From: an uncultured archaeon | GTDB taxonomy: Archaea; Aenigmatarchaeota; Aenigmatarchaeia; CG10238-14; SCSR01 | NCBI GenBank assembly: GCA_964444075.1 | Contig: CAYUFF010000002.1 | Coordinates: 1-45,684, forward strand | DNA length: 45,684 nucleotides | Reading direction: 5' to 3' | In this document: positions 3,847 through 36,146 of the stretch, one piece after another | Numbering within the stretch: position 1 is the stretch's first letter | Layout of the letters: each line of letters begins with the position of its first letter | The notes under the pieces: model-generated | What the model saw: the letters and a program-made list of their open reading frames with translations, nothing else | Database searches by the model: none | What the model was told of the DNA's origin: nothing | Translations under genes and position numbers: made by a program

Positions 3847-5133
3847 ATGATGAATGTGGGCTTCGGTCAAGTTGTACGTGTGAAAAAGGAAAGAACGACC
3901 GTGTTTTCTCTTACTATGCTTTTCGTCTTACTCATCCTTTCAACTTCAGCCCTAGGAGACCTACCCTTCACCTGCACCGTAAAACCTTCCTGCGACCAGT
4001 CGACGGGTGAGAAGGTCGTGCTCAAGCTCTCCAACACGACAAACGCGCACGCCGCGCTACCTACCGAAACGTACCCTTACTCTCTCTGTTGCAAGGGAAT
4101 AGGTGGGAATTGGATTCTTGGTTTAGATTGTTCCTCCAAGTTTTCCTATAATTTTTTAAACTTATCCAACGTAACTAACGCGCATGTGGAAACGAGTCTC
4201 TACGACAACTACCATGTGAAAGCTTGTATTGCAGGCGTTGGTCTCGTAAACTGTACCTATGCTTTGGATAGCTGCCCTAAAGACTACTACTGTGTTGTTG
4301 CAATTTCCAACTGGACGAACGCGCACGTCGAAGAGTGTAACGCTGGAAACTACAGGATAAAGGTTTGCTGCAGAATTTTCAGTCATTTTATATGGAAACC
4401 TCCAGAGGAGGGTGACATCAGAAAGTTGATAGGGATTTCTGGGACTAAGGATTTTCTAAATGTTTTCTGGAAAATTTCGAGTGTGGGTGGGAAAAACCAA
4501 AGACCTTTAAACGTGACTTGCTGGCTCAACGGAGATAAGGCAAACGCCTGTCACGGGTTTAGGAGAATCAGCAGCTGCACAATATTTCATCCTAAGTATA
4601 ACTCTACACTAGAATGTACGGCTTCTGGATGTAAAGTCGGAAAAAGTATGATAACTTGCATAGTTAACGATACCGTTTATCCTATGGTAAGCAACCAAAC
4701 CTCCCTCGAATTCAGGCATATCGACCACCGGATAAAGTGTTTACCTGGTTTGAACGCTACCGTAGGTAGGCTGGATATAAGGCTGACGTTGAAAAATACC
4801 GGATTGTTGAGAGATAGATACAACGTGACGTTGGATTCTTTAACGCCAAACATTCTCACCCCCATACAAAAAAGGCTTCAAACTAACCTTCTAGCTTATG
4901 GAGAAATCGAAGATAAGACAGTAAAAATCCTCCTGCTATCTAGCGGTGAGGGTTGGTTAATCATTACTACCAATTCCACGGAGGATCCCAGGATGGGAAA
5001 CGTTGTGCGAATGAAAATTTTCACTGGTTACAAGAGTCTGAGCGGATTGAACTACGTCGCTATCACCCAGCTCTTCCTCCTAAGCTCATTAATTTTCTTG
5101 CTCTTTCAGAGGAGAGGTATAATAAAACTTTAA
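3847..5133 (+). CDS. secreted Cys-rich, sequon-rich surface protein with a triple SN-x-T-NAH repeat domain, a shared C-terminal module and a C-terminal TM anchor
   Basis: Signal peptide (..KKERTTVFSLTMLFVLLILSTSALG/D). An alternative GTG start at 3880 gives a cleaner n-region. Three repeats of about 45 aa. The C-terminal 245 aa are colinear with the C-terminal part of the 16505..18079 product. The tail is a hydrophobic stretch plus RRGIIKL. Confidence 0.8.
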   Translation: MMNVGFGQVVRVKKERTTVFSLTMLFVLLILSTSALGDLPFTCTVKPSCDQSTGEKVVLKLSNTTNAHAALPTETYPYSLCCKGIGGNWILGLDCSSKFSYNFLNLSNVTNAHVETSLYDNYHVKACIAGVGLVNCTYALDSCPKDYYCVVAISNWTNAHVEECNAGNYRIKVCCRIFSHFIWKPPEEGDIRKLIGISGTKDFLNVFWKISSVGGKNQRPLNVTCWLNGDKANACHGFRRISSCTIFHPKYNSTLECTASGCKVGKSMITCIVNDTVYPMVSNQTSLEFRHIDHRIKCLPGLNATVGRLDIRLTLKNTGLLRDRYNVTLDSLTPNILTPIQKRLQTNLLAYGEIEDKTVKILLLSSGEGWLIITTNSTEDPRMGNVVRMKIFTGYKSLSGLNYVAITQLFLLSSLIFLLFQRRGIIKL

Positions 5134-6228: not shown

Positions 6229-6232
6229 ACTT

Positions 6233-6289
6233 TTCGAGAAGTTCGACTTTTCTGTTTTACCGTCGAGGGTTTCTGAAAACCTTCTCGAA
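6233..6289 (+). other. imperfect hairpin in the nop5 3' flank
   Basis: ttcgagaag (6233-6241) is the reverse complement of cttctcgaa (6281-6289). Nested gtttt/aaaac and tcgac/gtcga pairings lie inside. It starts 5 nt after the nop5 stop. Confidence 0.3.
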
Positions 6290-6358
6290 GCCAAACTATA
6301 TTATCATTTAAACACTTAAATTATTATTATTTAAGGTAGTAAAAAAAATTATAGTGTT

Positions 6359-6898
6359 ATGATGGTCGAAAGAAATAACGAAAGTGAAAAGGAGGGTTAC
6401 GAGGAATACGAAATCGTACCCCTATCACCCTTAAGAAAGTTGGAAAGAAGGGTCCGAAGACTCGAAGCGGAAAGGAGTGTTAGTAATAAAGAACTTTTTT
6501 CCAAACTCTTGGAAGTAAGCGAAGCCAACCAAACGTTAGTAGAAAGACTCATCGAGAACGACCGCGTTTTGAGAGAAGAACTTGGTAAGCTATCGACTTT
6601 GATCGAAGACCTCGTAAACAACTTAAAGGAGTTAATCGTCTACATAAAGCTCGGAGCTTCGAGGGAAGTTTCAGGTATAGAAAAAGTCGGTGGTGAGGCT
6701 GAAACCGCGATCCCATCGACCGAGGATGTAGCCCTCAAAATCCTCCTAGAAAAATTAATCGAAGAAAACAGAAGAATCATCGAGACGAACCAAACTATAA
6801 CGGATAGACTGGAGGAGCTCAGTAGAAAGTTGGGAAGGATTCTTCATCTTCCACCACCGCTCGTAATAAGGAGGGCCACCCCCGTAGAAAGGAGGTGA
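6359..6898 (+). CDS. cytoplasmic coiled-coil protein, first gene of the type IV filament locus
   Basis: No TM segment or signal. Heptad-rich charged sequence (LRKLERRVRRLEAE..., LIEDLVNNLKELI..., LEKLIEENRRIIETNQTITDRLEEL). AT-rich promoter-like region upstream at 6300-6358. GGAGGTGAGG sits at its 3' end in front of the next gene. Confidence 0.7.
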   Translation: MMVERNNESEKEGYEEYEIVPLSPLRKLERRVRRLEAERSVSNKELFSKLLEVSEANQTLVERLIENDRVLREELGKLSTLIEDLVNNLKELIVYIKLGASREVSGIEKVGGEAETAIPSTEDVALKILLEKLIEENRRIIETNQTITDRLEELSRKLGRILHLPPPLVIRRATPVERR

Positions 6899-6904
6899 GG
6901 AAAG

Positions 6905-7507
6905 ATGAAGCTTTGTCAAGCCCACATAGTTTCCTACGTAATAGTGGCTCTCCTCGCCATAGCCTTTGCTGGAACAGGCTACGTGTGGATTAAGCCTTTG
7001 ATAGAGAAAAGGAGCGACAAAATTAAGGTAGAAGCGTTGCTTCGTGCTTTCGATCCTGACAATCCAGAATCTTTACCGAGGAAAATTGAGGAAGTTGCAA
7101 ACACTCATAGTACGACCAGGTTCACATTTCCCGAGAAGGGTGCATGGATAGTTTCGGAACAGAACAACTCATTTTCCTTCACTGTACCTTCCAAAATAAG
7201 CAACGTTGCTGTAGGGACTGGATGGGTTTCTTACACACCCGGCGTATCCTGCCCTCCGCAAACAGGAGAAATCGGTGAGTCTCCCTTTGCCGTATGCATC
7301 AGAGCTAGAAAAGTGGGTAGTATCTACGAGTTGTACTACAAAGTTACGTTCAGGGAGCTCTTCGATGAAACTTCAGGAAAAACCTACAAGGTCCAACTGA
7401 AACCCTGCGAAAGGGCAAGTGGGTATGGGGATGAAATTGTGATAAGATTTTTAGGGGTGGAAAAGACGGGAAACCACATCATTACCAAAGTTGCTTTATG
7501 TGGCTAA
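6905..7507 (+). CDS. pilin-like protein with a class III-type signal peptide (paralog A1)
   Basis: N-terminus MKLCQAHIVSYVIVALLAIAFAG (short basic n-region, small residue, Gln, about 20 hydrophobic aa). It shares DPxNPxSLPRKIEEVANT and PF.VC....YxLxxxVxFREL blocks with the next gene. Confidence 0.65.
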   Translation: MKLCQAHIVSYVIVALLAIAFAGTGYVWIKPLIEKRSDKIKVEALLRAFDPDNPESLPRKIEEVANTHSTTRFTFPEKGAWIVSEQNNSFSFTVPSKISNVAVGTGWVSYTPGVSCPPQTGEIGESPFAVCIRARKVGSIYELYYKVTFRELFDETSGKTYKVQLKPCERASGYGDEIVIRFLGVEKTGNHIITKVALCG

Positions 7508-7509
7508 GT

Positions 7510-8145
7510 ATGAAGAGCCAAGCAGAGGTAATTTCGCTCGTCTTGGTTTTTTTGATTGCTATGGGACTTCTCTACTTTACCTTCGGATGGTTCTATCCAT
7601 GGGTAGAAAGGCGAAGAGACGAGATTAAGCTTGAGAGAGTCCTGTCTAATTTCGACCCGAGCAACCCCAACTCTCTTCCGAGGAAGATTGAGGAAGTTGC
7701 AAACACTGGTGGAGTGGTCAAGTTCAGGGTTGGAGAAAGAGGTGTGTGGAACCTTTACCCTCACAACGCTCATGATCCTTTGAATAATTCCCTAGAATTC
7801 TCTTTCTTCAGTAGGATAATCACCCATAAAATTCCGCGCGGTGAGTGGAAAAGTTTTGAAGGAAAAGAATGCAAGACAACAGTAGGTAGCATCTCAGAAA
7901 AGCCGTTCCTCGTTTGTTTGAAAGCGGATGAGCAAGCGAACGGTTACCTCGTCAAGCTAAGGGTTGTTTTTAGGGAGCTTTGTTCGGTTGGGAATTGCGT
8001 TAAAATTTTGCTTTCAAGAGAAACTCCCCTATCTCCTCTTTCCTCAACTTCAAAAACAATTACTATAAGGGGTTCTGGAACAACTTCTTCCGTGGAGAGG
8101 GGAATAGTTATAATCCTTAAAGAAGTGAAAATTTCATTGGTATGA
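7510..8145 (+). CDS. pilin-like protein with a class III-type signal peptide (paralog A2)
   Basis: From the ATG at 7510 the N-terminus is MKSQAEVISLVLVFLIAMGLLYF. This start lies 2 nt after the stop of the preceding gene. The track start at 7498 adds MWLS. Tandem paralog of 6905..7507. Confidence 0.65.
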   Translation: MKSQAEVISLVLVFLIAMGLLYFTFGWFYPWVERRRDEIKLERVLSNFDPSNPNSLPRKIEEVANTGGVVKFRVGERGVWNLYPHNAHDPLNNSLEFSFFSRIITHKIPRGEWKSFEGKECKTTVGSISEKPFLVCLKADEQANGYLVKLRVVFRELCSVGNCVKILLSRETPLSPLSSTSKTITIRGSGTTSSVERGIVIILKEVKISLV

Positions 8146-8579
8146 AGAAAAAACTTCAGAGCGTCATCGTTCAGTTTATCATCTTCTTCTTAGTATGCGT
8201 GGGTGTCCTCGTTACGTTCTCGAACCTTTTCCACATCCAGTTAAGGATTACCCAAAAGGACATTCTAAGAGAAAACCTCAAACTTATAACCGAGGAGTCC
8301 TCCCAAGCAATGGTCTACGCTTCGATTACTTGTAAACAGTGCGATTACGCAAGGATAACGATCTTTCCTCCGAAGAAAATTTCCAACGTTCATTACAAGG
8401 TTGAAACTTCTTCCCGTGGTTTGGAGACGACTTCTTTTAGTTCACGATTCAACGAAAGTTGGGTGTCTCCTGTATTCAACTTAAACTACACACTTTCCCT
8501 TCAACCTGAGGAATGGTATTCTGGTAGAAATTTAACTTTAATTTTCCAAAGAAGAAACTATAAACTATGGATAGGGTGA
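8142..8579 (+). CDS. small pilin-like protein with a class III-type signal peptide
   Basis: MKKKLQSVIVQFIIFFLVCVGVLVTF. 4-nt ATGA overlap with the upstream gene. Confidence 0.55.
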   Translation: MKKKLQSVIVQFIIFFLVCVGVLVTFSNLFHIQLRITQKDILRENLKLITEESSQAMVYASITCKQCDYARITIFPPKKISNVHYKVETSSRGLETTSFSSRFNESWVSPVFNLNYTLSLQPEEWYSGRNLTLIFQRRNYKLWIG

Positions 8580-10453
8580 GTAAGGTTTCGATCCGTCCTC
8601 AAGAGATTTTCAAAACGTTGGTTAAAGGATACAAGATAAAAAGGAGGTTAGAAACCTTCCCTAAACCACCTCCTCGGGAGATGAGGATACCTCCTGTAAA
8701 AGTCGCGCCTCTGAGTTCTCCGGTTACCCAACCCGAACTACCGAAGATTAAACCAAAGAAGGAAGAAGGTATAGAAGAAGTGGAAAGAAGGCGTGCAGAA
8801 GAGGCTCCTTCTCAACCCATGGAGGAAAGGGTAAAAGAAGGGAGGGCTCAAGAGAAAATCCCTTCGGAAGAGGAATCGGAAGCGGAAGGAATCGAACTAC
8901 CGACGACAATAACGAAGACTATCGAAGCTTCCGTGAAACTACCTGAGGAAAAGGCAGCAAAAATCGTCATGGTCTATCCTCTGATTCCAAAAAAACCTTC
9001 AGCAAAAGATTTGGTGTTCGCATACGCGAAAATATTTTGGAACTTAAAGGAGAATAGGTATGTCTACCATGTGGTAGAGCCGGAGCTTACTCCTCGCTTG
9101 AAAAACGTGCTAGAGAAGGTTAAGCATCTCCTCGAGCAAAAGATAGATATCGAGTTCTCTAAACTTGCTAAAGCAGAGGCGAAAGAATACTTAAGAAAAA
9201 AAATGGAAGAGGCCCTAAACTACTTTGGTTTTAAGTTACATCCGTTGGAAAGAAAAATACTGCACTACTACGCTGAGCGCGACTTCATAGGCCTAGGAAA
9301 AATAGAGCCTTTGATGAGGGATCCAGACATAGAAGAAATTTCTTGCGACGGTGTCGGCATACCTTTGTTTGTTTTTCACAGGAACCCAGCCTTGGGTTCG
9401 GTAGTTACTAACATAGTTTTCGAGACCTCAGAAGAGCTCGATTCCTTTGTGATAAGGCTTTCCCAACTCTGCGGAAAATCTATTTCTGTAGCTTCTCCTT
9501 TGCTCGACGGAAGCTTACCAGACGGTTCGAGAGTGCAAGCCACGTTAGCTACCGATATAGCGAGGAAGGGGAGTAACTTTACCATCAGAAAGTTCACGGA
9601 AACTCCGCTCACACCAACACACTTGCTTAAGTACAACACTCTCGACGTGAAAGTGCTAGCGTTCTTGTGGCTGTGTGTCGATTACGGTCTTTCTATGTTT
9701 GTTTCGGGAGGAACCGCTACGGGAAAGACTACTTTTCTGAACGTCCTTTCTCTCTTCATAAGGCCGGAGAAAAAGATAGTATCCATCGAAGATACTGCAG
9801 AGCTTAGGCTACCGCATCCCCACTGGGTGCCTCAAGTAGCGAGGGTTCCCATAGCGACGAAGCCTGGAGAAGTAGACCTTTTCGCTCTGCTGAAGGAGAG
9901 CCTCAGACAGAGGCCCGATTACATCATCGTCGGAGAAGTTAGGGGACCAGAAGCCTTTGTGCTCTTCCAGCAGATAGCTACGGGTCATCCAAGCTTAGCT
10001 ACGATTCATGCGGAAGACATGACCAAGCTCGTCGATAGGTTAATAACGCCTCCTATTTCCCTTCCTCCAGGCCTCATAGAAAATCTCGACCTCGTGATAT
10101 TTCTCGTGAGGACAAGGTATAAAGACAAGATAGTCAGGAGAGTTAACGAAGTCGTCGAAATAGTCGGTTTTGACAGAGAAAAAAACTTCCCGCGGGTTAA
10201 CGTACTTTTCAAGTGGAACCCTTCTACCGATGCCTTCGACGTGAAAAGCAAGAGCTTTTGCTTGAGGAAACTAGCTGAAAGGAGGGGTATTCCCGAAAAA
10301 GAGATAACGGCAGAGTTGCAAAGGAGAATGCTAGTCTTAAAGTGGGTTGCGGAGAATGACGTCTATGATTACAGAGATGTCTACAAAGTAATTAACGCTT
10401 ACTACACTCAGCCAGAAAGGGTGATTGAAATGATAAGACAAGGTATGGAATGA
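8567..10453 (+). CDS. type IV filament assembly ATPase (FlaI/TadA/VirB11-like secretion NTPase, T2SSE family) with a P/E/K-rich N-terminal extension
   Basis: Walker A SGGTATGKTTFLNVL, Asp box VSIEDTAEL, Walker B RPDYIIVGEVRG, His box SLATIHA. FlaI-like N-domain (YVYHVVEPELTP). Confidence 0.92.
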   Translation: MDRVSKVSIRPQEIFKTLVKGYKIKRRLETFPKPPPREMRIPPVKVAPLSSPVTQPELPKIKPKKEEGIEEVERRRAEEAPSQPMEERVKEGRAQEKIPSEEESEAEGIELPTTITKTIEASVKLPEEKAAKIVMVYPLIPKKPSAKDLVFAYAKIFWNLKENRYVYHVVEPELTPRLKNVLEKVKHLLEQKIDIEFSKLAKAEAKEYLRKKMEEALNYFGFKLHPLERKILHYYAERDFIGLGKIEPLMRDPDIEEISCDGVGIPLFVFHRNPALGSVVTNIVFETSEELDSFVIRLSQLCGKSISVASPLLDGSLPDGSRVQATLATDIARKGSNFTIRKFTETPLTPTHLLKYNTLDVKVLAFLWLCVDYGLSMFVSGGTATGKTTFLNVLSLFIRPEKKIVSIEDTAELRLPHPHWVPQVARVPIATKPGEVDLFALLKESLRQRPDYIIVGEVRGPEAFVLFQQIATGHPSLATIHAEDMTKLVDRLITPPISLPPGLIENLDLVIFLVRTRYKDKIVRRVNEVVEIVGFDREKNFPRVNVLFKWNPSTDAFDVKSKSFCLRKLAERRGIPEKEITAELQRRMLVLKWVAENDVYDYRDVYKVINAYYTQPERVIEMIRQGME

Positions 10454-11322
10454 TGGGGTTGTACACAACGCTTGCGATGAGGTTCTTCTCGGAATACGGG
10501 TTGAAGCTCTCCAAGTATTTTGCAGAGACTTCAGAAGAGCTAAGAAGGGTGGGAATGGGAATGTCACCGCAGGAGTATTTTTCGGTAGCAATCTTCACAT
10601 CCTTTATAGTTTTTCTGGCGGAGTTACCTTCCTTAACATTTATAATGGCTGTTATTGTCCAAAAATCTCCGCTTTTCAGCTTTTTTTCCGCATTCCTCAT
10701 GAGCTCTGGTTGTACAGCTGGGATTTTCTTCCTCTTTCTCGGCTATCCTAAGAGTGTGGGAAGGGATAAAACGAGGGAGATAGAAAGAGATTTGCCACTG
10801 ACTACTTTGCATCTTTTTACCGTTTCGCAGACTCGTCTTCCGCTCCACAAGATTTTTGAAATGTTTTCTCGGTTCGCGAGGGGAGAAACGAAAAAAGAAG
10901 TCGGAAAGATAGTAAGAGATGTAAGGTTTTTTGGGTTGGACATAGACAGCGCACTCGAGAGAGCTATCAACAGAACGCCCTCCAAGGATTTTAGGGAGTT
11001 GCTCTTGGGCATTCTTTCTACGCGAAGAGCCGGCGGGAGTGTTTCCTCCTATTTAAGAGAAAAAGCTTCAACATTCACGGAGGATTACAGGAGAAAGCTT
11101 TACGAATTCTCGAGGCAGCTGACGATTTACATAGAAATCTATCTGGTAGCGATAGTCCTCGGTAGCGTACTCTTTATAACCTTAACTTCTCTCTTCGCTA
11201 CCATGATGGCAAAGGGACTTGATATAATAATCATCCAGTTTTTCCTCGCCGTAATCTTCATACCAGCAATCTCGATAGTCCTTATAGTGTTGATAAAATC
11301 GATAACTCCGGGTGGTGGATAA
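10450..11322 (+). CDS. platform membrane protein with a single T2SSF domain (TadB/TadC/FlaJ-half-like), copy 1
   Basis: TM helices flank a cytoplasmic domain (VRDVRFFGLDIDSALERAINRTPSKDFRELLLGILSTRRAGGSVSSYLREKA). 4-nt overlap with the ATPase gene. Confidence 0.85.
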   Translation: MMGLYTTLAMRFFSEYGLKLSKYFAETSEELRRVGMGMSPQEYFSVAIFTSFIVFLAELPSLTFIMAVIVQKSPLFSFFSAFLMSSGCTAGIFFLFLGYPKSVGRDKTREIERDLPLTTLHLFTVSQTRLPLHKIFEMFSRFARGETKKEVGKIVRDVRFFGLDIDSALERAINRTPSKDFRELLLGILSTRRAGGSVSSYLREKASTFTEDYRRKLYEFSRQLTIYIEIYLVAIVLGSVLFITLTSLFATMMAKGLDIIIIQFFLAVIFIPAISIVLIVLIKSITPGGG

Positions 11323-11354
11323 TCGAGCTCAAACGTAAGATACTCATAGGAAGT

Positions 11355-12224
11355 TTGGTAATCTCCGCGTTTTTAGTTAGTCTTGGAATGCTCGACCCAG
11401 GCGTACTTTTTCTTAGTATAATCCTCTCCACTTTCATCGTCCTCCTCCCACAGATGTTCTTCAAGTACGAAAAGTACAGAAAAATAAAGGAAATGGAAAG
11501 GATGTTTCCTTCTTTTCTGAGAGATTTGGTAGAGCACGTGAGAGCTGGAGAACCCCTTCACACAGCTATAATCAACGTAAGCAACGTTGATTACGGAGAA
11601 CTTTCGAAGGAAGTTAAAAGGATAGCAGCTCAACTTAGCTGGGGAATTCCCATACACAAAGTGCTAGAACAATTTGCCGAGAGGGTCGAAAGCAGAAGGT
11701 TGTCAATGGCTGTGGAAGTTCTAAGAGAGTGCTACCTTTCTGGTGGTGACGTTGCACTCACCTTGGAATCTTTAGGTGAAACTATTTCTAAACTCGAGGA
11801 CGTCGAAAGGGAAAGGAAAGCCATACTCAACCAATATGTGGTAATAATTTACATTATCACACTACTCTTCATAGGAGTCGTTACGATCTTGAACAACTTC
11901 ATGATTCCGATTTTCGAGATAGGAGGGACTATGGGGGGTGAAGTCGCATTCGAGAATCCTTGTAATGTGGCTTACGGACCCTCCTTGCTAATCTGCGACC
12001 TTTATCGAGGAATTTCCTCTGCCTTCGCGATAAAGAGCGAAATTGCATCTTACTACGTTGGTCTGTTCTTCTTAATGACCATGGTCCAAGCATTTTTTGG
12101 CGGGTTAATAATAGGACAGATTACTCGCGGCTCCATTACCGCTGGGTTCGTTCATAGTATATTACTTTCCTCTATCGTGTTTGGGTCTTTCGGAATTTTG
12201 AGCTATTTGGGTGTGTTAGGATGA
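11355..12224 (+). CDS. platform membrane protein with a single T2SSF domain, copy 2
   Basis: FPSFLRDLVEHVRAGEPLHTAI...LSWGIPIHKVLEQFAERVESRRLSMAVEVLRECYLSGGDVALTLESL followed by TM helices. TTG start per the track, with no in-frame ATG upstream. Its frame differs from copy 1 and the gap is 32 nt. Confidence 0.82.
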   Translation: MVISAFLVSLGMLDPGVLFLSIILSTFIVLLPQMFFKYEKYRKIKEMERMFPSFLRDLVEHVRAGEPLHTAIINVSNVDYGELSKEVKRIAAQLSWGIPIHKVLEQFAERVESRRLSMAVEVLRECYLSGGDVALTLESLGETISKLEDVERERKAILNQYVVIIYIITLLFIGVVTILNNFMIPIFEIGGTMGGEVAFENPCNVAYGPSLLICDLYRGISSAFAIKSEIASYYVGLFFLMTMVQAFFGGLIIGQITRGSITAGFVHSILLSSIVFGSFGILSYLGVLG

Positions 12225-12724
12225 AGCTCTCTCAAGCTGGGATGGATTTCGTCGTCGTAATCGTGATCTTCCTAGTAATCTCTACCTACCTTTTCTTCCG
12301 GACATTTTCCTACAAATCCTGGTACTTACAGAAGGTTAGGGAAAATCGTTTGGAGTTGATAGCGTACGAAATCTCGGAAATCCTGATAAACGACCCCGGT
12401 GAGCCTGTAGATTGGGATGCGGCAAACGTCAAGAGAATTGGACTTTCCGATGAGAAGGCTAACTTGACAAACCTTGTTTGGATGGAAAAGATTAAAGCTT
12501 TAGCTAGCATTTGCAGTAATTATGAGGACGTGAGAAAAAAGTTGGGTGTTAGCAGCGATGTTTGGTTTTCGATAGAAATAGAAGTACCTTCGCAAAACTA
12601 CCATTATGTTTGTCAACCCACCACTATAATATCGAGAGGTTTTAACTATACCTTCGAGAGAGTGTTCGTCGCAAGGAACCAAACTTTCATCGGCTTCGGA
12701 AAGCTAAAAGTAACGGTGTGGTAA
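12221..12724 (+). CDS. pilin-like protein with a class III-type signal peptide
   Basis: MKLSQAGMDFVVVIVIFLVISTYLFF (S/Q junction, acidic residue at predicted +5). 4-nt overlap with the platform gene. Confidence 0.62.
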   Translation: MKLSQAGMDFVVVIVIFLVISTYLFFRTFSYKSWYLQKVRENRLELIAYEISEILINDPGEPVDWDAANVKRIGLSDEKANLTNLVWMEKIKALASICSNYEDVRKKLGVSSDVWFSIEIEVPSQNYHYVCQPTTIISRGFNYTFERVFVARNQTFIGFGKLKVTVW

Positions 12725-12726
12725 GT

Positions 12727-14073
12727 ATGAAAGGTGTTGTAATAATCTTCGAACTCCTCATCACACTCTTGATACTCATCGGAACTTACTTGGTGTTTTT
12801 TTCCTTTCCAGAAGTTCATTTTTATTGGAAGGAGGCAAAGCAAACTTTGTTAGCGAGGGATTTGCTCGTTTCTCTAGATAGGCTTAACTTGCTTTACGAG
12901 AGTTCCTTCAACCTAACGAAGTTCTCTTCTTATCTCGACTATCTTTTCAAAGAAAAGCCTCTCCTCTTTACATTACTCGTCCGTGGAACCATCAAAGGAG
13001 ATATAAACGTAGCATGCAACTGCACCGAGGAGGAGAAGAAGTTTATAGAGGATTGGTTGGAAGGTCATAAGGGATTTGCGAAGTTTTCCTTCAACGGAAG
13101 GAAGGTCAACTTCCACGTTTGCCTCACCGACCTCGAATCCACCGCTAATCCCTGCTTGAGCAGGAACCCCGACGTCCTAATTATTTTGGGAAAGAAAAAG
13201 TTAGATAAACCGAAATACCTCGACCTGCTTTCTTCTCTTCTGAAAAAGGGTTGCGGTATAGTCGAGGTGAGAGATTTTTCTTCCTCCAGCGAGATAGACC
13301 AAGTTCAGAAAAAAATATTCGGTATAGAATGGGTTGGAACTGGAGCGACCCAACAGTACGATTACTTTCCTAGAGAGCCTTCCAGCGTGAAGGAAATCTA
13401 TTATCAACCTTGGAAGTACTTCTACCACCTTCCGATAAACCTGGAGTACAACTCTTCCGAAAGAATAGCGGGCTGCACTTTTTCGCCCTCCGCCAAAGGC
13501 ATCTTTAGCTTCAATCAAACTTCCTATTACTTTTGGATTTGCGACGAGAAGAGCGTCTGCATAGACAAGGACAAGTCTGGAACTTGCGAGTTAGCTAGCG
13601 AAAGGGTAAAGGAGGGTGAATTCTTTTCGTTGAAAGGTAGAAAGTTTTATTTGAGTTACATTAACGGCAACGTTTCCATAGGAATCTCTTTCAAGCCAGA
13701 GTATAAATTCGCGGATTTTTTGAGCAGCGGTGGAGGAAGTTACCACGTTAAGCCGAGCAATGACGATTCCACAAGGATACTCCTCCAATCCTACCCCGCT
13801 AATTTCCCAGTCGTGATTCTGAATTCTACAAAAATCGCGAACGTAGCGTGGATTGCCAACTTCACTAAAGACGGTCACGTTAGCGACGACGAGAGGCTCC
13901 TGTTCATTTCCTTGTTACTCTGGGCTTCCAACAAGGATGTTTATTGGACCAGAGTCTCTCCCGAGAAAATTTCCTACTTCAAAAGATTCCCAACCGTTAC
14001 CTATATCAACGCCGTCAACAAGGACATGTTCGAGGTCTACGAATTGGGTTTGAAAGTTGCGTCGCCTTACTAG
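12727..14073 (+). CDS. large (449 aa) pilin-like protein with a class III-type signal peptide
   Basis: From the ATG at 12727 the N-terminus is MKGVVIIFELLITLLILIGTYLVFF (KG junction). This start lies 2 nt after the previous stop. The remainder is a Cys- and sequon-containing extracellular domain with no motif I recognise. Confidence 0.6.
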   Translation: MKGVVIIFELLITLLILIGTYLVFFSFPEVHFYWKEAKQTLLARDLLVSLDRLNLLYESSFNLTKFSSYLDYLFKEKPLLFTLLVRGTIKGDINVACNCTEEEKKFIEDWLEGHKGFAKFSFNGRKVNFHVCLTDLESTANPCLSRNPDVLIILGKKKLDKPKYLDLLSSLLKKGCGIVEVRDFSSSSEIDQVQKKIFGIEWVGTGATQQYDYFPREPSSVKEIYYQPWKYFYHLPINLEYNSSERIAGCTFSPSAKGIFSFNQTSYYFWICDEKSVCIDKDKSGTCELASERVKEGEFFSLKGRKFYLSYINGNVSIGISFKPEYKFADFLSSGGGSYHVKPSNDDSTRILLQSYPANFPVVILNSTKIANVAWIANFTKDGHVSDDERLLFISLLLWASNKDVYWTRVSPEKISYFKRFPTVTYINAVNKDMFEVYELGLKVASPY

Positions 14074-14162
14074 TATTTCTCAAGTCTGAAGAAAAGTGTT
14101 ATTCTTTTGAAAGTTGGAAGGCTGTGAAAATTATAGCGTCAGTAGGTTCGGTAAAAACAGCG

Positions 14163-14175
14163 TTAATTTAAAAAG
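14163..14175 (+). promoter_or_regulatory. TATA-like box of an internal promoter in the filament locus
   Basis: ttaatttaaaaag lies about 29 nt upstream of the ATG at 14198. It sits inside the only sizeable gap of the locus (124 bp, AT-rich). Confidence 0.35.
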
Positions 14176-14197
14176 TCTTAACGAAAAATTTTATTTT

Positions 14198-15541
14198 ATG
14201 CTACGATGTGGTAAGTTTCCGTTGCCATGTTTCACCTACGCATTCCTTTTCCTCGTAACCCTTTTCATCTTTACCGTTCTCTCCGTAGCGCAACATAACT
14301 TGATAGAATCTTTCAAATCTTCCTTGTTTTATCACGGAAATGTAAGGATAAGCCTCGCGAAGAATCTCTACTCTCCTGGAGAAGGCTTGCAAGCGAGGGT
14401 AGAACTCCAAAACTTTGAAAGTTTTCCATTGCTTAATACTTATCTTGTTATAGAGCTCGTGAGGGGTTGCGAAACTCCCCTTCAACCAACCTACTTAGGG
14501 GAGTGCAACGTCGTCCACGAGGAAAGGGTTCACGTCGGAACTTTACTACCAGGTGAAACTAAAGTCGTTGTGTGGAACTTTACCCTTCCGCAGGACCTAA
14601 GGCCCGGGGTTTACAGGGTCGACGTCTACTTCAAGAACGATAGAACGCCCATTTTCGGTATTCCACACAGTTTTTTCATGCCAGCCTACGTTACGTTCAA
14701 CGTAAGCTACGCGGAAGGTGCCGATTATCCAAGAGCAAAAATCCTTTGGACGAAGACTCACGTCCTGGGAGGTTACGCTCAATCGGGACCGATGGTTTTA
14801 CCCGGAACTCTCGTGGAAGGCGCCGTTTTCGTGAAGGCTTTTCAGAGTTTCGATGGAACGTTGAGTGTTAAGGTTTGCCCTTACGACGACACCTCATGCA
14901 AGAACTTTCCGATAGAGAGGGTGTATCGTGTGAAATTGAAGAAAGGTGAGGAGAAACCATTCATAATAAACTTCACGGCGCCTACCGCTCCTAACGCTTA
15001 CTCTATCCGCTTGGAATTGCGAGACGTTAACGGGAGGTTGCATTCTCTTTACAGGAGTAGAATAGTTGTCCTAGGTGAAGGAGCGAGGATATTGAAAATG
15101 GCGGTAAGCAATGTTACCCTCGAAAGCGGAAAGGAATCTTGGGTCCTCGTGGCCGTGACGGGCCCTCTCGGTTACTCTACAATACTACCGAGTAAGAAAA
15201 ACGTTACCGGAGTTAAGCTGAAAGTTTGGGTCGAAACCAAAGGAAAGGAAGTCACTCTTTCCGACGAGCATACCTTCCCGTCCCTCAGTTTTGATCAAAT
15301 CGAGGTTTACCAAGCCAAGTTTGTGCCGATAGCTTCTCTTGCGGATTTCAGAGTCTGCACCTCCTTGACAAAAGACGGTAAAGTGTTAGATGAATACTGT
15401 GAAAGCGTATGGACGGAAAAACTTCCAGTAATCGTAACCGGCAGGGAAGTTCCCTCCCTCAACGCCATAATCGTGGCAGGAGTGGTAGGTTTATTAATCC
15501 TGATGGTTATCGTTATTCATAAGAGAAGGAGGATGTTGTGA
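14198..15541 (+). CDS. surface protein with repeated CARDB/Ig-like beta-sandwich segments and a C-terminal TM anchor
   Basis: I preferred the ATG at 14198 (MLRCGKFPLPCFTYAFLFLVTLFIFTVLSVAQ) to the TTG at 14114. Repeated strand-rich segments of the type LLPGETKVVVWNFTLPQDLRPGVYRVDVYF. The C-terminus is PSLNAIIVAGVVGLLILMVIVIHKRRRML. Confidence 0.7.
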   Translation: MLRCGKFPLPCFTYAFLFLVTLFIFTVLSVAQHNLIESFKSSLFYHGNVRISLAKNLYSPGEGLQARVELQNFESFPLLNTYLVIELVRGCETPLQPTYLGECNVVHEERVHVGTLLPGETKVVVWNFTLPQDLRPGVYRVDVYFKNDRTPIFGIPHSFFMPAYVTFNVSYAEGADYPRAKILWTKTHVLGGYAQSGPMVLPGTLVEGAVFVKAFQSFDGTLSVKVCPYDDTSCKNFPIERVYRVKLKKGEEKPFIINFTAPTAPNAYSIRLELRDVNGRLHSLYRSRIVVLGEGARILKMAVSNVTLESGKESWVLVAVTGPLGYSTILPSKKNVTGVKLKVWVETKGKEVTLSDEHTFPSLSFDQIEVYQAKFVPIASLADFRVCTSLTKDGKVLDEYCESVWTEKLPVIVTGREVPSLNAIIVAGVVGLLILMVIVIHKRRRML

Positions 15542-15545
15542 GAGT

Positions 15546-16508
15546 ATGGTGAAGAGAATCGAGTTTTTAAAGGGAAGCATAATGATGGTAATTTTCTTTT
15601 TCGTTTACTCTTCTCTTGGTTACGGCGGATGCCCTCCTCTCCAGTTTGACCCGCCGCCATTGAAGGTTACTGGGGAGACTTACATTATAGCTCCGGGTAC
15701 GAAGGTTTCGGCACCCGACTGTTGGTCGAAGATACATACTTGCAGTAATACAGCAGGTTATTGGGGTTGGGTTCCACACTACATCACGATTACGGGAAGT
15801 AAAAACGAGTTCTACCTGCTAGACGTAAACGAAGAAAACGTTTCCGTGAAAAGAGCTGATGTCGTTGACGCAATTTCTTCTCACGTCTACGATGACATTT
15901 CCCTCACGACTCCAGCGCAGGATTACGGGCCGTCGATAGAGACGGTTGACATCCCCCCTTTGGATGACATCCAGGGTGTTCCTCCCAGCACAGTAACCTG
16001 TGAAGCGTACGATACGTCGAGAGCTTTAACTTTCTCTTACGTGCCAGAGTTGGAAAAAAGAGTACACAAAGCCTTGGAGAATTGGATTGAGAGAGTAAAC
16101 AGAACTTCAACAGGAAATGTGACTACTTTCACGAAAGGGAACATGACGATCACGATGAACGTCACGAAAGTTTTTCACTACGAGCTACAGCCAATTTCAA
16201 CTGCTCTGGATAGGATAGATATTATCATAAACGTCACGAACGTAACTCAAGTTGAGAACGCTACCACAAACAAGACGGAAACGTTCATCTCTACCGAAGT
16301 GGTTAAGAGAACTCTCTACGTCTCTTACGAAAAAGTTTTCCGCACATTCTACGACCAAGCGAAGATTACGGTAAGGAGCTACAGGATGTTGTGCGGCGTG
16401 GACAAGGACATCAAAGCGAGTCGCGTGCGAAGCTTTATCTTTTCGGAACCTGGAAGGTTTTACATCTACGGAACCAAACAATATGAAGTGGAAGTCGTAG
16501 GAAAATGA
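15546..16508 (+). CDS. secreted or pilin-like protein with an extremely sequon-dense segment
   Basis: The N-terminus MVKRIEFLKGSIMMVIFFFVYSS is a possible KG/S class III junction. There are 8 N-x-S/T sequons within 58 aa (aa 185-243). Confidence 0.62.
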   Translation: MVKRIEFLKGSIMMVIFFFVYSSLGYGGCPPLQFDPPPLKVTGETYIIAPGTKVSAPDCWSKIHTCSNTAGYWGWVPHYITITGSKNEFYLLDVNEENVSVKRADVVDAISSHVYDDISLTTPAQDYGPSIETVDIPPLDDIQGVPPSTVTCEAYDTSRALTFSYVPELEKRVHKALENWIERVNRTSTGNVTTFTKGNMTITMNVTKVFHYELQPISTALDRIDIIINVTNVTQVENATTNKTETFISTEVVKRTLYVSYEKVFRTFYDQAKITVRSYRMLCGVDKDIKASRVRSFIFSEPGRFYIYGTKQYEVEVVGK

Positions 16509-18079
16509 GAAAAGTGTTTAACCCGTGGGGAGAAAAGGTTCTTGGGAAAGTTGAACTTACACTTAGTTTTATTTTTCTGTTGGCAACGACTTTCTTTTTA
16601 TATACACTTTCCCAACTTTCGGAAGCGATAGAAGTGATAGTGGTCGACCCGCACATCTCCATTTCTCCGCCCTTCTCACCGCAGTACAGATTACCAGGTG
16701 TACCTTGGAGGTTTGACTTTGTGTTGATAAACGACGGTTACGGAGACGTCCAAGTAATTGCGGTCTCTCCTTCTTGTCCGCTGAATGTAATCTGTTCCGT
16801 AGAGGGATTCACCTCTGGCAAGCTGGTAGAAGGTGAGAACGTTACTACCACTCTTGAAGTTAGACTACCTCACGATGCGGAACCGGGTGAGGAATTTATC
16901 GTAGGAATTTCGGTAGAGTACGACGATGCTTACGGCCTACCCACAGTCGGTCCGAAAACGGCACTCTCCAACACCACTTTAAAATCCCTCAGGGCGAAGC
17001 TCGTCATCGAAAAATTCTACTTGGAAAACATAACCAAGGTCGACGGAAGGTGGATTGTGGTGGTCCACACTCCCCATAGAGTCAAGCTATGGGTTACCAA
17101 CGTCGGCAACCTGAGAGCCGACAACGTGACCGTGGTGTGGACAATTCCTAACGGTTGGGAAATCCAGGAACTTCAAACTCCATCGACGATCGACGTGGGA
17201 GAGACGAAACTTTTCGAATACTCGCTCGTCCCGAGGAGCCTGGGTAATTTTTCGTTGGGGTTAAGAATCGATTATACTTCTTGGCAATACGGAAAAAACG
17301 TCACACATTTTGTCGCGCACTCTGTGGATGTGTGGTGCTTCGATAAACCGCAGTTCAACATAGCGCCTTCAGGGGATGTAAGGAAGTTGCTAGGCGTTTC
17401 TGGCACGCCGGACTATCTCAACGTCTTTTGGAACGTGACTTACATGGAAGGTAGCATAAGGGACGTAACCGTTACGTGTTGGTTAAACTACGGGAAATCT
17501 TGTAAGGGTTATAGGAGGAGTAGCAGCTGCACGATTTTTCACCCGAACTACAATGCTTCGCTCGACTGCAGTGTACTCGGGTGTACGGCAGGAAAAAACC
17601 TCGTTTTATGTACGGTGAACGATTCGGAATATCCTAAGATAAGCAACGTGGCAAGCGTCAGCTTCAGACACTTGGACTTCGAAATGAAATTACCGGAGAA
17701 CGTGACGTTTACTGTCGGTAGCGTGATTCTACCGTTTCGTTTAAAAAACCTAGGATTGCTTCCAGACAACTACAGCATCGGCGTTACCACTTTTCCTACT
17801 GGAAGGATGGTAGTAACCCTCGCAGAAAATTCCACTCCAACGATGCACCACGGAGAAATTTACTCGGCAAACGTTCGTATCTTAGTCCTTTTAGGCGGGG
17901 AGTCCTACCTAAATTTCCTCGTAAATTCTACTACTGACCCCAGAGTATGGAAGTCCTACGGGGTAAAAGTGAAAGCTGGTCATAAGGCCCTTTCAGGTAT
18001 GAACGAGATTTCTGTGTTTACACTACTACTGCTCTCTGCAGGTGTATTCTTTGTTTTGTCGAGGAGGAATAAATTTTAA
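16505..18079 (+). CDS. large surface protein with beta-sandwich N-terminal half, the Cys-rich module shared with 3847..5133, and a C-terminal TM anchor
   Basis: N-terminal hydrophobic segment (..LGKVELTLSFIFLLATTFFLY). CARDB-like segment (HRVKLWVTNVGNLRADNVTVVW). aa 281-524 are colinear with aa 183-428 of the 3847 product. 4-nt overlap with the upstream gene. Confidence 0.75.
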   Translation: MRKVFNPWGEKVLGKVELTLSFIFLLATTFFLYTLSQLSEAIEVIVVDPHISISPPFSPQYRLPGVPWRFDFVLINDGYGDVQVIAVSPSCPLNVICSVEGFTSGKLVEGENVTTTLEVRLPHDAEPGEEFIVGISVEYDDAYGLPTVGPKTALSNTTLKSLRAKLVIEKFYLENITKVDGRWIVVVHTPHRVKLWVTNVGNLRADNVTVVWTIPNGWEIQELQTPSTIDVGETKLFEYSLVPRSLGNFSLGLRIDYTSWQYGKNVTHFVAHSVDVWCFDKPQFNIAPSGDVRKLLGVSGTPDYLNVFWNVTYMEGSIRDVTVTCWLNYGKSCKGYRRSSSCTIFHPNYNASLDCSVLGCTAGKNLVLCTVNDSEYPKISNVASVSFRHLDFEMKLPENVTFTVGSVILPFRLKNLGLLPDNYSIGVTTFPTGRMVVTLAENSTPTMHHGEIYSANVRILVLLGGESYLNFLVNSTTDPRVWKSYGVKVKAGHKALSGMNEISVFTLLLLSAGVFFVLSRRNKF

Positions 18080-19288: not shown

Positions 19289-19392
19289 TGGGGTCGCTGG
19301 GATTTGAACCCAGGTCAGCTGGTTTCCTCATCCTTCTTCAGAGCTCCAGGCTGCTGGAGCCAGCCGTGCTAACCTGGCTACACCACGACCCC
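19289..19392 (-). tRNA. tRNA-Trp: tRNA-Trp (anticodon CCA) with a 30-nt intron; no encoded CCA end
   Basis: Manual fold of the reverse complement. Acceptor GGGGTCG/CGACCCC, D arm GTGT..GCAC, anticodon stem GCTGG/CCAGC with loop CU-CCA-G/A, T arm CTGGG-TTCAAAT-CCCAG, discriminator A. The intron (19324-19353) follows position 37, and its CUGGAG pairs with CUCCAG of the anticodon loop. Confidence 0.9.
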
Positions 19393-19601: not shown

Positions 19602-21053
19602 TCAACCCTTTCTCGGCAAGACAACGACTGGCTTGGAAATCGTTACCCTCTTCTTCCTTCCTCTTCCTACGTACTGCACGGTAGCTTCTGGTAGCCTCAA
19701 GCTTCCTACTATATCCACGACGGGCTTTATCCTGTAGCTCAGGATGACCTCCTCCCCCGGCTTCAGCGACGGTATCCTCCATACGAGCTCGACTCCTTTC
19801 TTCGTCTTCCTCTTCACCGGCTTGAGCGTTTCGAATTTTTCGACGAGCGCAGCAAGGGGAGGTACCCTGTCCTTAACGATAACATCTTTGACGACGTGCC
19901 TCGAGTGGTTCGCCACCGAAAGCGTTATCGGTATCTCCTTCTCCCTGCTCAACAGCTTCACGGGCTTGATTTTCTTCACGACCTTTATCGAGTAGTACCT
20001 TGCGTACGAAATTACGGTAACCGCTATTGCTACTACGGCCAAGAGCAAGAGCAGCGTGTAATCGAAGGAGTACCTTATCTCGTACTCCCTGTTCGGATTC
20101 AGCGACGGCACCTCCCACACGTAGGTTACTTTACCTTCTTTTTCATAGGTCTCGGTCGGCTTAGTCTCCGGTCTGAAGAAGAGGGAAAGGAATTTCGAGA
20201 TGTTGAGCGTATAAGGCTTCGGGCTTGAGGGGGCGTTGCCCACGTTCCTTATCTTCACCACGTAACTTTGGATTAGCAGCATGTTTTTCATCGAAGTGGT
20301 TACCGCGAACTTTTCTACTGGCATCACCGAAAAGGATAGCAGCTTGGAACTCACTATCCTCTCGTCTTTCTTCAGCAGAACGTAAACCTTGTAATCTCCG
20401 GCTTGGCTCCACTCCGGCAACTGGAACGAGCTAACAAAATCTCTACCTCCCTTCCTCTCCAGGTAAAAACCTTCCCTGAAGATTTTCTTTATGTCTCCGT
20501 CTTTCTTCACGAGAATTTCTAGCGAAAAATTGCCGCTTTCAGCGAAGTTGCTAACGGAGACTTTCACGCTAACCTTTTCCCCTGGGTAAAATCTTTCTTT
20601 GTTCAGTTCGCAACGCGTTATGCAAGTTAGCCCCTCGCCTCTAACCTTCATCAGGATTTGCTCCGACGACTTTTCCTCGGGTTTGGTGAGCGAGAACGCC
20701 GTTACCTTGAAAACGACCTCGCCGCCGAGAGTGCATTCTGGCGTGTAGAACTTTAACGGAATCTCGACCTTTTCTCCTGGTGCTAACTCAACCCTCGGCG
20801 GGACGTCGACGTAAATTCCGAACTTGGAAGCTTCCGGTGGCCATACGGAGATTCCGAAGATGTCGCTCTCGCTCCCGAGATTCTGCAGGGTTACCGTAAC
20901 GGTTTTCGTTCCTCCGACGTTTACCTCGAGGGTTGTTGCCGAAAGGTTCATAAAAATTTTAGCTTGTGCCATCGTTGGAGAAAAGAGGTAAAGGAAGAGG
21001 AGTGTCGATATAAGCAACGACGAATGATTACCTAAAAATTTACGAACTTTCAT
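19602..21053 (-). CDS. membrane protein with beta-sandwich (CARDB / COG1361 S-layer-domain-like) segments on both sides of a central TM helix
   Basis: Signal peptide MKVRKFLGNHSSLLISTLLFLYLFSPTMAQA. Repeated L.N.G-type strand segments (VTVTLQNLGSESD, VVKIRNVGNAPS). Central TM LLLLLAVVAIAVTVISY. The C-terminal domain has PSLKPGEEVILSYRIKP. Confidence 0.72.
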   Translation of the reverse strand: MKVRKFLGNHSSLLISTLLFLYLFSPTMAQAKIFMNLSATTLEVNVGGTKTVTVTLQNLGSESDIFGISVWPPEASKFGIYVDVPPRVELAPGEKVEIPLKFYTPECTLGGEVVFKVTAFSLTKPEEKSSEQILMKVRGEGLTCITRCELNKERFYPGEKVSVKVSVSNFAESGNFSLEILVKKDGDIKKIFREGFYLERKGGRDFVSSFQLPEWSQAGDYKVYVLLKKDERIVSSKLLSFSVMPVEKFAVTTSMKNMLLIQSYVVKIRNVGNAPSSPKPYTLNISKFLSLFFRPETKPTETYEKEGKVTYVWEVPSLNPNREYEIRYSFDYTLLLLLAVVAIAVTVISYARYYSIKVVKKIKPVKLLSREKEIPITLSVANHSRHVVKDVIVKDRVPPLAALVEKFETLKPVKRKTKKGVELVWRIPSLKPGEEVILSYRIKPVVDIVGSLRLPEATVQYVGRGRKKRVTISKPVVVLPRKG

Positions 21054-30839: not shown

Positions 30840-30844
30840 TTATC

Positions 30845-31873: not shown

Positions 31874-31876
31874 AGC

Positions 31877-32983: not shown

Positions 32984-32994
32984 CTCACGTCAAG

Positions 32995-33882: not shown

Positions 33883-33901
33883 CTTGATAATCTTTGGTGT
33901 T

Positions 33902-34387: not shown

Positions 34388-34737
34388 GAAAAGATTTAGG
34401 AAAAAACAAAAAGAAAAAAATAAAGCAGATAAGTTTTGTTGGCTATCCTCTGGTAGAATGGCATGATAGTTGGCAATATCTCCATTGTAAGCTGCATGGT
34501 AGTTATTGTCACTTCTCCGAAAGATAATCACGAAAAAGATGAACTTTGTCAACAGGAAAAGAAAGCTTTCGCAAAATCTTTCTCGAAGAAGATTTCGGAG
34601 ATTTTCCGAAAAAACCCAAGAGGGTAAACCACACGTAGCAAAATCCGTCAAACCTCAAGAATCTTACTCCTCCCGCTAATGTAAGCTTAAAGTACTTTGG
34701 TAAGAAAATTTGGAGTATATGAAGGTTTAAACTCGTT

Positions 34738-34957: not shown

Positions 34958-35054
34958 AGCTGCTTGGTTTTTAGAAATTGAGGAATGGGTTGGACTATGG
35001 AAGAGTAGAAGTAGAAGGGGAAGGTTTTTATTTGTGGTTTTGCTATAGGTATTT

Positions 35055-35288: not shown

Positions 35289-35294
35289 ATCGGG

Positions 35295-36049: not shown

Positions 36050-36146
36050 ACGGCCCACTCGAATTTTAAATTTGAATAAGCTTTAGCAAAAGCTCGTTTA
36101 CCTCTTCGACCACAGCTTTGCAAGTTCTCTTTTGAACTTTTCCTCT

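Follow-up and report, generated by a model that had tools for sequence, protein, structure and literature searches.

Within a 45,684-nucleotide stretch of DNA from an uncultured archaeon of the phylum Aenigmatarchaeota (contig CAYUFF010000002.1 of assembly GCA_964444075.1; the whole stretch is called the window below), we identified a locus that quite likely encodes an archaeal type IV pilus-like filament assembly system of this small, symbiotic-type DPANN archaeon. Most DPANN archaea have not been cultured; they are believed to need direct contact with the cells of a host, and the question of their means of attachment still stands. The locus comprises 12 co-directional open reading frames (ORFs) on the plus strand, here named g01 to g12, which span 6359–18079. 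It combines a secretion ATPase and a platform of membrane proteins with several proteins that begin with class III-like (prepilin-type) signals, and the type IV filament locus proposed in a first-pass annotation of this DNA was borne out. The predicted system most likely serves in attachment to a surface or to another cell that acts as host.

The ATPase and its split platform

The core of the locus is g05 (8567–10453), which encodes a 628-aa secretion ATPase of the GspE/FlaI superfamily. The protein matched Pfam T2SSE (E = 2.6e-30) and contains GGTATGKTT at residue 381, SIEDTAEL at 406, DYIIVGEVRG at 451 and ATIHA at 478, with the Walker A, Asp box, Walker B and His box of the GspE/FlaI/VirB11 superfamily all present. 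The next two genes encode platform proteins, g06 (10450–11322, 290 aa, TadB/EpdJ-like, with four transmembrane (TM) segments) and g07 (11355–12224, 289 aa, TadC/EpdK-like, with a TTG start), which matched Pfam T2SSF with E values of 2.1e-14 and 6.3e-18, respectively, and are 26% identical to each other. Because g06 matched the N-terminal half (profile positions 6–248 of 555) and g07 the C-terminal half (positions 204–440 of 465) of the ArlJ/FlaJ models in NCBIfam, we conclude that the platform is split over two genes, an arrangement found in 12 out of 12 related genome or contig loci. The ATPase motifs and two T2SSF membrane proteins had been recognized in the first-pass annotation, and our Pfam scan matched all three proteins.

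We compared g05 with solved structures and with named family models. Its best structural match was A. fulgidus GspE (2OAP; 361 bits), which aligned over the full length including the C-terminal domain, followed by S. acidocaldarius FlaI (285 bits) and the Tad ATPase CpaF (160 bits). FlaI was the best-scoring named model in NCBIfam at 410 bits, under its equivalog cut-off of 550; TadA (TIGR03819) reached 162 of the 373 bits required and BasE 197 of 1000, and the BasF model scored 29 bits against 1300 with the proteins of the locus. Additionally, g05 has an N-terminal extension of approximately 150 aa that is rich in Glu, Pro and Lys, and its C terminus scored 23.8 bits against PilB3_C, under the Pfam cut-off of 27.

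The rank of the FlaI model, and the label 'flagellar protein FlaI' that JGI gives to many homologues of this ATPase, would fit an archaellum (motility) locus, intact or degenerate. We rejected this reading, which we consider extremely improbable: the FlaI score falls below the equivalog cut-off, the closest solved relative is A. fulgidus GspE and not FlaI, the platform is split, unlike ArlJ, and Pfam searches of the window ORFs of at least 100 aa found no FlaH, FlaF/G, FlaC/D/E/X or archaellin. The absence of archaellum accessory genes reported in the first-pass annotation thus stands for the window.

Two features of the ATPase family were seen in passing. Residues 1–150 (8567–9016) consist of a conserved basic helix, [IF]FK.L[VI][KR]GY[KR]I, and then a variable Glu/Pro/Lys-rich linker, in the orthologues as well; this region might dock onto g01, the coiled-coil protein, or onto the membrane. 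In a related locus from Aenigmatarchaeota Yes49-35 (L002), the g05 orthologue (10001–13246) is interrupted at the Asp box, near residue 410 (SIEDT) of the window protein, by an intein of approximately 1.5 kb with LAGLIDADG and Intein_splicing domains; the proteins P0003 and P0004 were noted together with this intein, and the window ATPase is intein-free. The ATPase ORF of locus L082 is approximately 820 aa long and may hold an intein too.

A conserved array of eight families

To delimit the unit, we compared the locus with 92 related loci, 12 from genomes or contigs and 80 from metagenomes. The metagenome loci came from a scan with the g01 profile, and their ORFs were assigned by family hidden Markov models. 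The order g01-g02-g04-ATPase-T2SSF-T2SSF-g08-g09 was consistent in all 80 of these loci, which were seeded by the g01 profile, and g01 lay directly 5′ of the pilin/ATPase array in each of them. The eight-family array was complete in 26 of the 27 loci that have at least 8.5 kb of downstream sequence. L002 contains all of the g01–g12 array, ordered as it is here but with only one gene of the g02 type, and 11 further loci contain genes for a coiled-coil protein, a protein of approximately 200 aa, one of approximately 145 aa, the ATPase, two T2SSF proteins, a protein of approximately 170 aa and one of approximately 340–495 aa, without g10–g12. Homologues of g10–g12 adjoin the array in just two or three of the 92 loci: g10 homologues were found in L002 and L031, g11 homologues in L002 only, and g12 homologues in L002, L031 and, weakly, L065. 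In L031 these homologues are located 5′ of g01. The best named homologues of both the ATPase and g09 come from metagenome-assembled genomes of Candidatus Aenigmatarchaeota.

Because the order of the array is fixed while homologues of g10–g12 rarely adjoin it, the predicted functional unit is eight families, represented here by nine genes at 6359–14073. The twelve-gene machine of the first-pass annotation therefore overstates the unit. We regard g10–g12 as a lineage-specific neighbouring add-on that is probably a separate transcription unit.

The remaining features of the layout that had been read from the sequence were confirmed by the ORF listing and a check of the gene junctions, namely the 12 co-directional genes, exact ATGA start/stop overlaps at 8142, 10450, 12221 and 16505, and a 124-bp AT-rich break. 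The locus as a whole (6359–18079) has a G+C content of 44.5%. The intergenic region upstream of it (6229–6358) has 28.5% G+C and TATA-like runs directly 5′ of the ATG at 6359, and is the likely promoter of the g01–g09 unit. The 124-bp gap (14074–14197; 29% G+C) contains a TTAATTTAAAAAG run approximately 25–30 nt before the ATG at 14198 and is likely to be a promoter of its own for g10–g12. The longest ORFs of g03, g09 and g10 begin at 7498, 12718 and 14114; comparison within the families favours the ATG codons at 7510, 12727 and 14198 as their starts.

Other arrangements occur around the array. L053/L012 (contig Ga0079992_130491) is the sole sufficiently long locus without g08 and g09; its array stops after the second platform gene, the gene for ribosomal protein S17e comes next, and it may be a natural minimal version. 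In L002 and L008–L011 a thermosome (Cpn60/TCP1) gene lies directly 5′ of the array, the place occupied by Nop5 in the window.

Class III-like N-termini

Five proteins from four families (g02/g03, g04, g08 and g09) begin with [KR]-[GAS]↓[Q/hydrophobic], in which the arrow marks the predicted cleavage site, followed by a hydrophobic helix of approximately 20 residues. In the window these N-termini read MKLC↓QAHIVS (g02), MKS↓QAEVIS (g03), MKKKL↓QSVIVQF (g04), MKLS↓QAGMDFVV (g08) and MKG↓VVIIFE (g09). Gln occupies +1 in g02, g03, g04 and g08, and the g09 family has V, F or Q there. All five had been quoted in the first-pass annotation, and we found the motif conserved throughout each family. Among 95 members of the g02 family, 94 have K or R at −2 and 94 have A, G or S at −1; +1 is Q in 61, I in 18 and V in 11, D or E stands at +3 in 75, and the consensus is K-[GA]↓Q-[STA]-[ED]-I-I-S. 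The g04 family (n = 64) has K or R at −2 in 58 members (K in 57), G, A or S at −1 in 61 and Q at +1 in 61, with no acidic residue noted. In the g08 family (n = 41) the corresponding counts are 40, 35 and 37, and E or D is found at +5 in 40, the position of the acidic residue in bacterial type IV pilins. The g09 family (n = 37) has K or R at −2 in 34, G, A or S at −1 in 33, Q at +1 in 14 (F in 9, I in 6, V in 3) and E or D at +6 in 36; E is present in 36 of the 36 members that possess this residue. An acidic residue is thus conserved at +3, +5 or +6 within the hydrophobic helix of the pilin-like families.

Because the motif is kept in each family across independent loci, it lies beyond chance. 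The family-wide pattern is the canonical archaeal prepilin layout, which excludes chance hydrophobic N-termini and predicts cleavage at the marked site. A scan for class III-like N-termini among all window ORFs of at least 40 aa recovered four of the five proteins together with spurious matches, and missed g02 through its Cys at −1. The same scan found no Epd-type pilin of approximately 70 aa. Two further N-termini that had been listed as ambiguous, those of g11 and g12, proved to be Sec-type signal peptides when aligned with their L002 orthologues.

The N-termini and the split platform are also what would be expected of a genuine Epd ('system 1', Methanococcus-type)/Tad member. In that case the genes for an EppA-type peptidase and for short Flp/EpdE-like major pilins would lie elsewhere, and every pilin of the locus would be a minor one. 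Gln dominates +1 in three of the four pilin families, and in M. maripaludis EppA needs it at this position to process its substrates (PMC4390842). Genes for major pilins frequently stand alone (PMC4858521), and DPANN appear among the system 1 lineages in a 2026 preprint by Sivabalasarma & Albers. We nevertheless consider this reading unlikely. The ATPase scores far higher with GspE of A. fulgidus, a clade 2 protein, and with FlaI than with CpaF, and its TadA score is less than half of the cut-off; the weak PilB3_C-like C terminus and the long N-terminal extension are system 2 traits in that preprint; two tadC genes are possible in clade 2 loci too (PMC4858521); and neither an EppA gene nor a class III ORF of approximately 70 aa was found in the window. 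EppA was also not found in the related loci by a crude motif-plus-TM screen, and an unlinked copy is possible. Of the term 'Epd/Tad-like' used in the first-pass annotation, the part that holds concerns the split platform and Gln at +1; the ATPase relationships and the lack of EppA and of a short pilin speak against the rest.

Pilin-like proteins and a cytoplasmic partner

Searches of Pfam and NCBIfam returned nothing above threshold for g01–g04 and g08–g11, and we characterized the families by alignment, profile searches and structure prediction. g02 (6905–7507) encodes a 200-aa type IV pilin-like protein. Its AlphaFold2 model, built from a 77-sequence alignment, has a mean predicted local distance difference test score (pLDDT) of 97.2 and comprises a helix at residues 2–48, a second helix at 57–67 and then a beta domain. 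This arrangement, in which the N-terminal helix spans 47 residues, is the 'lollipop' architecture of pilins. The g02 family has 114 representative clusters, which required an exhaustive HMMER search; a word-indexed homologue search returned the query alone. Below-threshold matches to Pfam DUF7289 cover the first 60–90 residues of 32 of 77 family members, and no link between DUF7289 and a published pilin arCOG was established. PilA/Pilin_N (PF07790) matched 1 of the 77, with E = 0.09 only. A Foldseek search of the PDB with the g02 model gave no match with E < 0.04, and because there is no fold match the pilin assignment rests on the architecture together with the N-terminal motif. The next gene, g03 (7510–8145, 211 aa), is 40% identical to g02 and both correspond to one gene of L002, so we regard them as tandem paralogues; g02 is present in tandem in L008, L070, L073, L075 and L079 too.

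Two smaller proteins appear to be minor pilins. g04 (8142–8579) encodes 145 aa with C64 and C67 nearly invariant in its family, and g08 (12221–12724) encodes 167 aa with C98 and C131 invariant. An added DUF2341 domain was confirmed in the g04 orthologue of L011 and in the g08 orthologue of L010. The g04 orthologues of L013 and L060 probably carry the added domain or are otherwise enlarged, and the enlarged g08 orthologues of L022, L026 and L065 probably contain DUF2341 as well. Given these enlarged orthologues, and DUF2341 in two of them, g04 and g08 look like modular pilins, which points to adhesion.

The largest pilin-like protein is encoded by g09 (12727–14073, 448 aa, with seven N-glycosylation sequons). 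Its AlphaFold2 model from 42 sequences (mean pLDDT 87.9; predicted template modelling score 0.85) shows an N-terminal TM helix and a second helix that carry a large head composed of an alpha/beta part and a beta-sandwich. Foldseek against the PDB gave weak matches only, to ThuA-like 4e5v, the IFT52 GIFT domain (5fmr) and glycosidase accessory domains, with template modelling scores of approximately 0.25–0.26; weak Pfam matches to ThuA or GIFT were seen in some family members, and a PDB profile search with the family gave no match. All 41 homologues are annotated as 'hypothetical'. We consider g09 a candidate tip subunit or adhesin. Profile–profile comparison showed that the pilin families share their N-terminal segment only, as is typical of pilins, and we rejected the idea that they are demonstrable paralogues on this ground.

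The first gene of the array, g01 (6359–6898), encodes a 179-aa protein with no TM segment, coiled-coil character and a Pro/Arg-rich tail. Its family has 12 invariant columns in an 11-sequence alignment and an invariant N-terminal peptide, EE[FY]E[LI][IV]PxSP[LI]R[KR][LI]E[KR]R. The g01 profile matched only coiled-coil or helical-bundle chains in the PDB. We propose that g01 is a cytoplasmic adaptor or regulator of the ATPase.

A set of several distinct pilin-like proteins of low similarity, one of them 448 aa long, recalls pseudopilin sets or binding proteins with class III signals. The locus could on this basis form no long pilus; its product would be a short pseudopilus or a 'bindosome-like' surface structure for the display or export of proteins such as the g09 head or DUF2341 modules, as in type II secretion or Bas. 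The functionalization of type IV filament machines by class III-signal binding proteins is argued in the 2026 preprint, and BasE and BasF of NCBIfam gave weak matches here. Those matches are far under their cut-offs, however, the g02 model is a compact, pilin-sized lollipop, g02 is duplicated in tandem as major pilins are, and Pfam detected no substrate-binding-protein domain in any pilin-like member. These results make such an assembly quite unlikely.

Several observations weigh against the filament assembly system that we favour. The −1 residue is atypical in most of the window proteins, being Cys in g02 (with an inserted Leu), Leu in g04 and Ser in g03 and g08, and the canonical K-G is present in g09 only; K-L↓Q variants of this site recur in some sister loci. 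A prepilin peptidase (Peptidase_A24) was not detected by Pfam among the ORFs of at least 100 aa in the 45.7-kb window, as the first-pass annotation had noted for the locus, and none was found in the 92 related loci by a crude screen for a GxGD-type motif with at least four TM segments, which could miss a divergent enzyme. The description of the machine as complete-looking is therefore not supported. Foldseek found no solved pilin in the PDB that resembles the g02 or g09 models, and a PDB profile search with the g02 family gave a marginal match to the N-terminal helix of 8fk7_A (E = 1). The choice of g02 as candidate major pilin, like filament formation, cleavage and function, is a prediction from sequence.

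A proposed mechanism

In the mechanism that we propose for the filament assembly system, an unlinked prepilin (class III signal) peptidase would remove the short basic leader. A hexameric ATPase docked on the g06/g07 platform would extract the mature subunits from the membrane and polymerize them through their N-terminal helices. The filament shaft would be built from g02/g03, which are approximately 200 aa long, prone to duplication and lollipop-shaped in the model, and g04, g08 and the large g09 may serve as low-abundance priming or tip subunits. The head of g09 would offer an adhesive surface, and the lectin-like DUF2341 modules on g04 and g08 in sister lineages may do likewise. g01 would act on the ATPase from the cytoplasm as adaptor or regulator, and g10–g12 may be glycosylated envelope proteins beside the array. 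A more far-reaching version, which we put forward only tentatively and regard as rather doubtful, is that the array defines an undescribed Aenigmatarchaeota-wide filament subtype, in which the ThuA/GIFT-like head of g09 and lectin-bearing g04/g08 would form a glycan-binding tip for host attachment, g01 would control assembly, and a non-canonical or unlinked peptidase would tolerate Ser, Cys or Leu at −1.

A literature search found no description of the Aenigmatarchaeota array or its families. The locus defines a compact, strictly conserved candidate gene set for an attachment filament in one DPANN phylum. It brings together four pilin families and a cytoplasmic partner without family annotation; the named homologues of g09, the sole family searched by name, are all 'hypothetical protein'. 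Two of the proteins, g02 and g09, now have high-confidence structure models, and the N-terminal motifs and gene order provide handles for annotation and targets for electron cryotomography, metaproteomics and heterologous expression.

Surface proteins and surrounding genes

Downstream of the AT-rich gap lie the three variable neighbours. g10 (14198–15541) encodes a 447-aa Sec-secreted surface protein with eight Cys, five sequons and a C-terminal TM anchor (423–441) followed by KRRR. g11 (15546–16508) encodes a 320-aa Sec-secreted protein with nine sequons and no anchor. Neither had a Pfam or PDB match. g12 (16505–18079) encodes a candidate Sec-secreted surface glycoprotein of 524 aa with a NEW3/CARDB-like domain (Pfam NPCBM_assoc, 30.3 bits against a cut-off of 24.4), 13 sequons and a C-terminal anchor (TM 501–519 with a basic tail); PDB sequence and profile searches gave no match. 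The N-termini of all three align with L002 orthologues whose signals are plainly Sec-type and not class III (...GLA↓QEL, ...VYG↓SCPPLQF, the one aligned with g11, and ...VAA↓EVIVV). g10–g12 are thus predicted to be Sec-exported envelope proteins rich in glycosylation sites, two of them C-terminally anchored. The first-pass annotation had called the surface proteins beta-sandwich proteins, which is supported for g12 by its NEW3 domain, whereas the others had no domain match. C-terminally anchored, Cys-rich, S-layer-like proteins accompany archaeal type IV pilus loci (PMC4858521).

Housekeeping genes flank the locus. The 5′ flank contains genes for EF-1alpha, a Na/Ca exchanger, an M48 peptidase and Nop5, the last immediately 5′ of g01. 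The 3′ flank contains genes for UMP kinase and a methyltransferase, with a glycosylation gene cluster further downstream. Beyond Nop5, a plus-strand gene at 3847–5133 encodes a 428-aa secreted protein with 19 Cys, 12 N-X-S/T sites and a C-terminal TM anchor. Over its last approximately 235 residues it shares 43% identity with the C-terminal half of g12 and is thus a paralogous surface-protein module, and both paralogues (5040–5133 and 17980–18079) end in K[SA]LSG[LM]N, a hydrophobic helix and a basic tail, which could be a sorting or anchoring signal. No archaeosortase/exosortase family was among the Pfam matches for the window. Convergent with the locus, a minus-strand gene at 19602–21053 encodes a surface protein of 483 aa, in which a Sec signal peptide is combined with Ig domains of the DUF11/CARDB-like kind and a TM segment lies internally (333–351); in the related locus L006 a giant DUF11-repeat protein of 1824 aa adjoins the pilus genes.

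The glycan-synthesis cluster at 30836–44242 encodes two GT4 glycosyltransferases, a sulfotransferase, a Glycos_transf_4 enzyme, a UDP-sugar dehydrogenase, a hexapeptide acyltransferase, a GFO/IDH/MocA oxidoreductase, a DegT aminotransferase and a PMT_2-family transferase. A possible role of this cluster is to provide N-glycans for g09–g12, which have 7, 5, 9 and 13 sequons. Within it, the GC-skew peak of the window at 35–36 kb (0.40 at 35055–35738) was considered as an RNA or repeat, and this was rejected; it is a purine-rich coding stretch on the plus strand that encodes a 77-aa and then a 147-aa protein (MFLVIDANVVF) with a PIN-like N terminus. The two form a putative toxin–antitoxin pair with a PIN-type toxin, and an antisense ORF of 305 aa (34847–35764) is probably spurious. 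Two RNA genes lie on the minus strand: an Rfam tRNA call at 19289–19392 (104 nt, 54 bits) that ARAGORN missed and that is probably an intron-containing archaeal tRNA, and a full-length archaeal signal recognition particle RNA at 44388–44703 (113 bits), where an overlapping ORF (44573–44920) is probably not a gene.

Comparison with known systems

We compared the locus with four described kinds of type IV filament system. It resembles bacterial Tad/Flp in its TadB/TadC-like platform split and in having an ATPase of the same superfamily as CpaF. Unlike Tad/Flp, it falls short of the TadA model, Pfam and NCBIfam found no Flp pilin, TadV, TadZ, secretin RcpA or TadD/E/F/G in the window, and its pilins are 145–448 aa long with globular domains. 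With the Epd pilus of Methanococcus maripaludis (clade 1/system 1) it shares two platform genes (EpdJ/EpdK), a trait not exclusive to system 1 (PMC4858521), several in-locus pilin-like proteins and Gln at +1 of the predicted mature pilins (PMC4390842). Unlike that system, its locus contains no EppA, a 9-TM peptidase that is usually encoded in the Epd locus, no globular-domain-less major pilin of approximately 70 aa (EpdE/arCOG06620 type) was found nearby, no Epd accessory protein was identified in the window, and its ATPase is not a fast-evolving outlier and keeps strong similarity to A. fulgidus GspE and FlaI.

Judged by bit scores, its ATPase is closer to that of the clade 2/system 2 type IV pili of euryarchaea (A. 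fulgidus GspE; the PilB3/PilC3 type of H. volcanii). A. fulgidus GspE (AF0659/2OAP) has been placed in clade 2, arCOG01817, and many clade 2 loci also hold two tadC-like genes (Makarova et al. 2016, PMC4858521). The ATPase of the locus can be aligned with A. fulgidus GspE over the entire length; its long N-terminal extension and its weak match to PilB3_C would also fit this group, and the sub-threshold DUF7289 similarity of the g02 family is a further likeness. The locus departs from clade 2/system 2 in the lack of a PilA/Pilin_N (DUF1628) pilin, apart from the single marginal match in the g02 family; in g01 and four pilin families that belong to no Pfam or NCBIfam family; and in the dominance of Gln at +1 in place of the haloarchaeal-type motif.

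The fourth comparison is with DPANN loci. Loci with split TadB/TadC and unrecognizable 'dark-matter' pilins were noted by Makarova, Wolf & Koonin 2019 (PMC6393860, Fig. 2A), and the 2026 preprint describes subsystem 4A, which in DPANN has a pair of platform genes and of which a PilY-like adhesin is the marker. The accessible text of both contains no family-level description that matches g01, g04, g08 or g09, and the PilY-like marker given there for subsystem 4A was not detected here. In these sources, as here, an ATPase and TadB/TadC lie amid signal-peptide proteins unlike known pilins, together with surface proteins. In our reading the locus joins a clade 2-like ATPase/platform module, the likeness being measured by bit scores to one representative of each kind, to a set of pilins specific to the lineage, and by this reading it would not be an orthologue of Epd, Tad, Aap, Ups, Bas or the archaellum. 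Pilin sets peculiar to one lineage have been documented before in archaeal type IV filament loci, those of DPANN included, and the general picture is unchanged: the array is a lineage-specific variant of a well-known machine and will not surprise the specialist.

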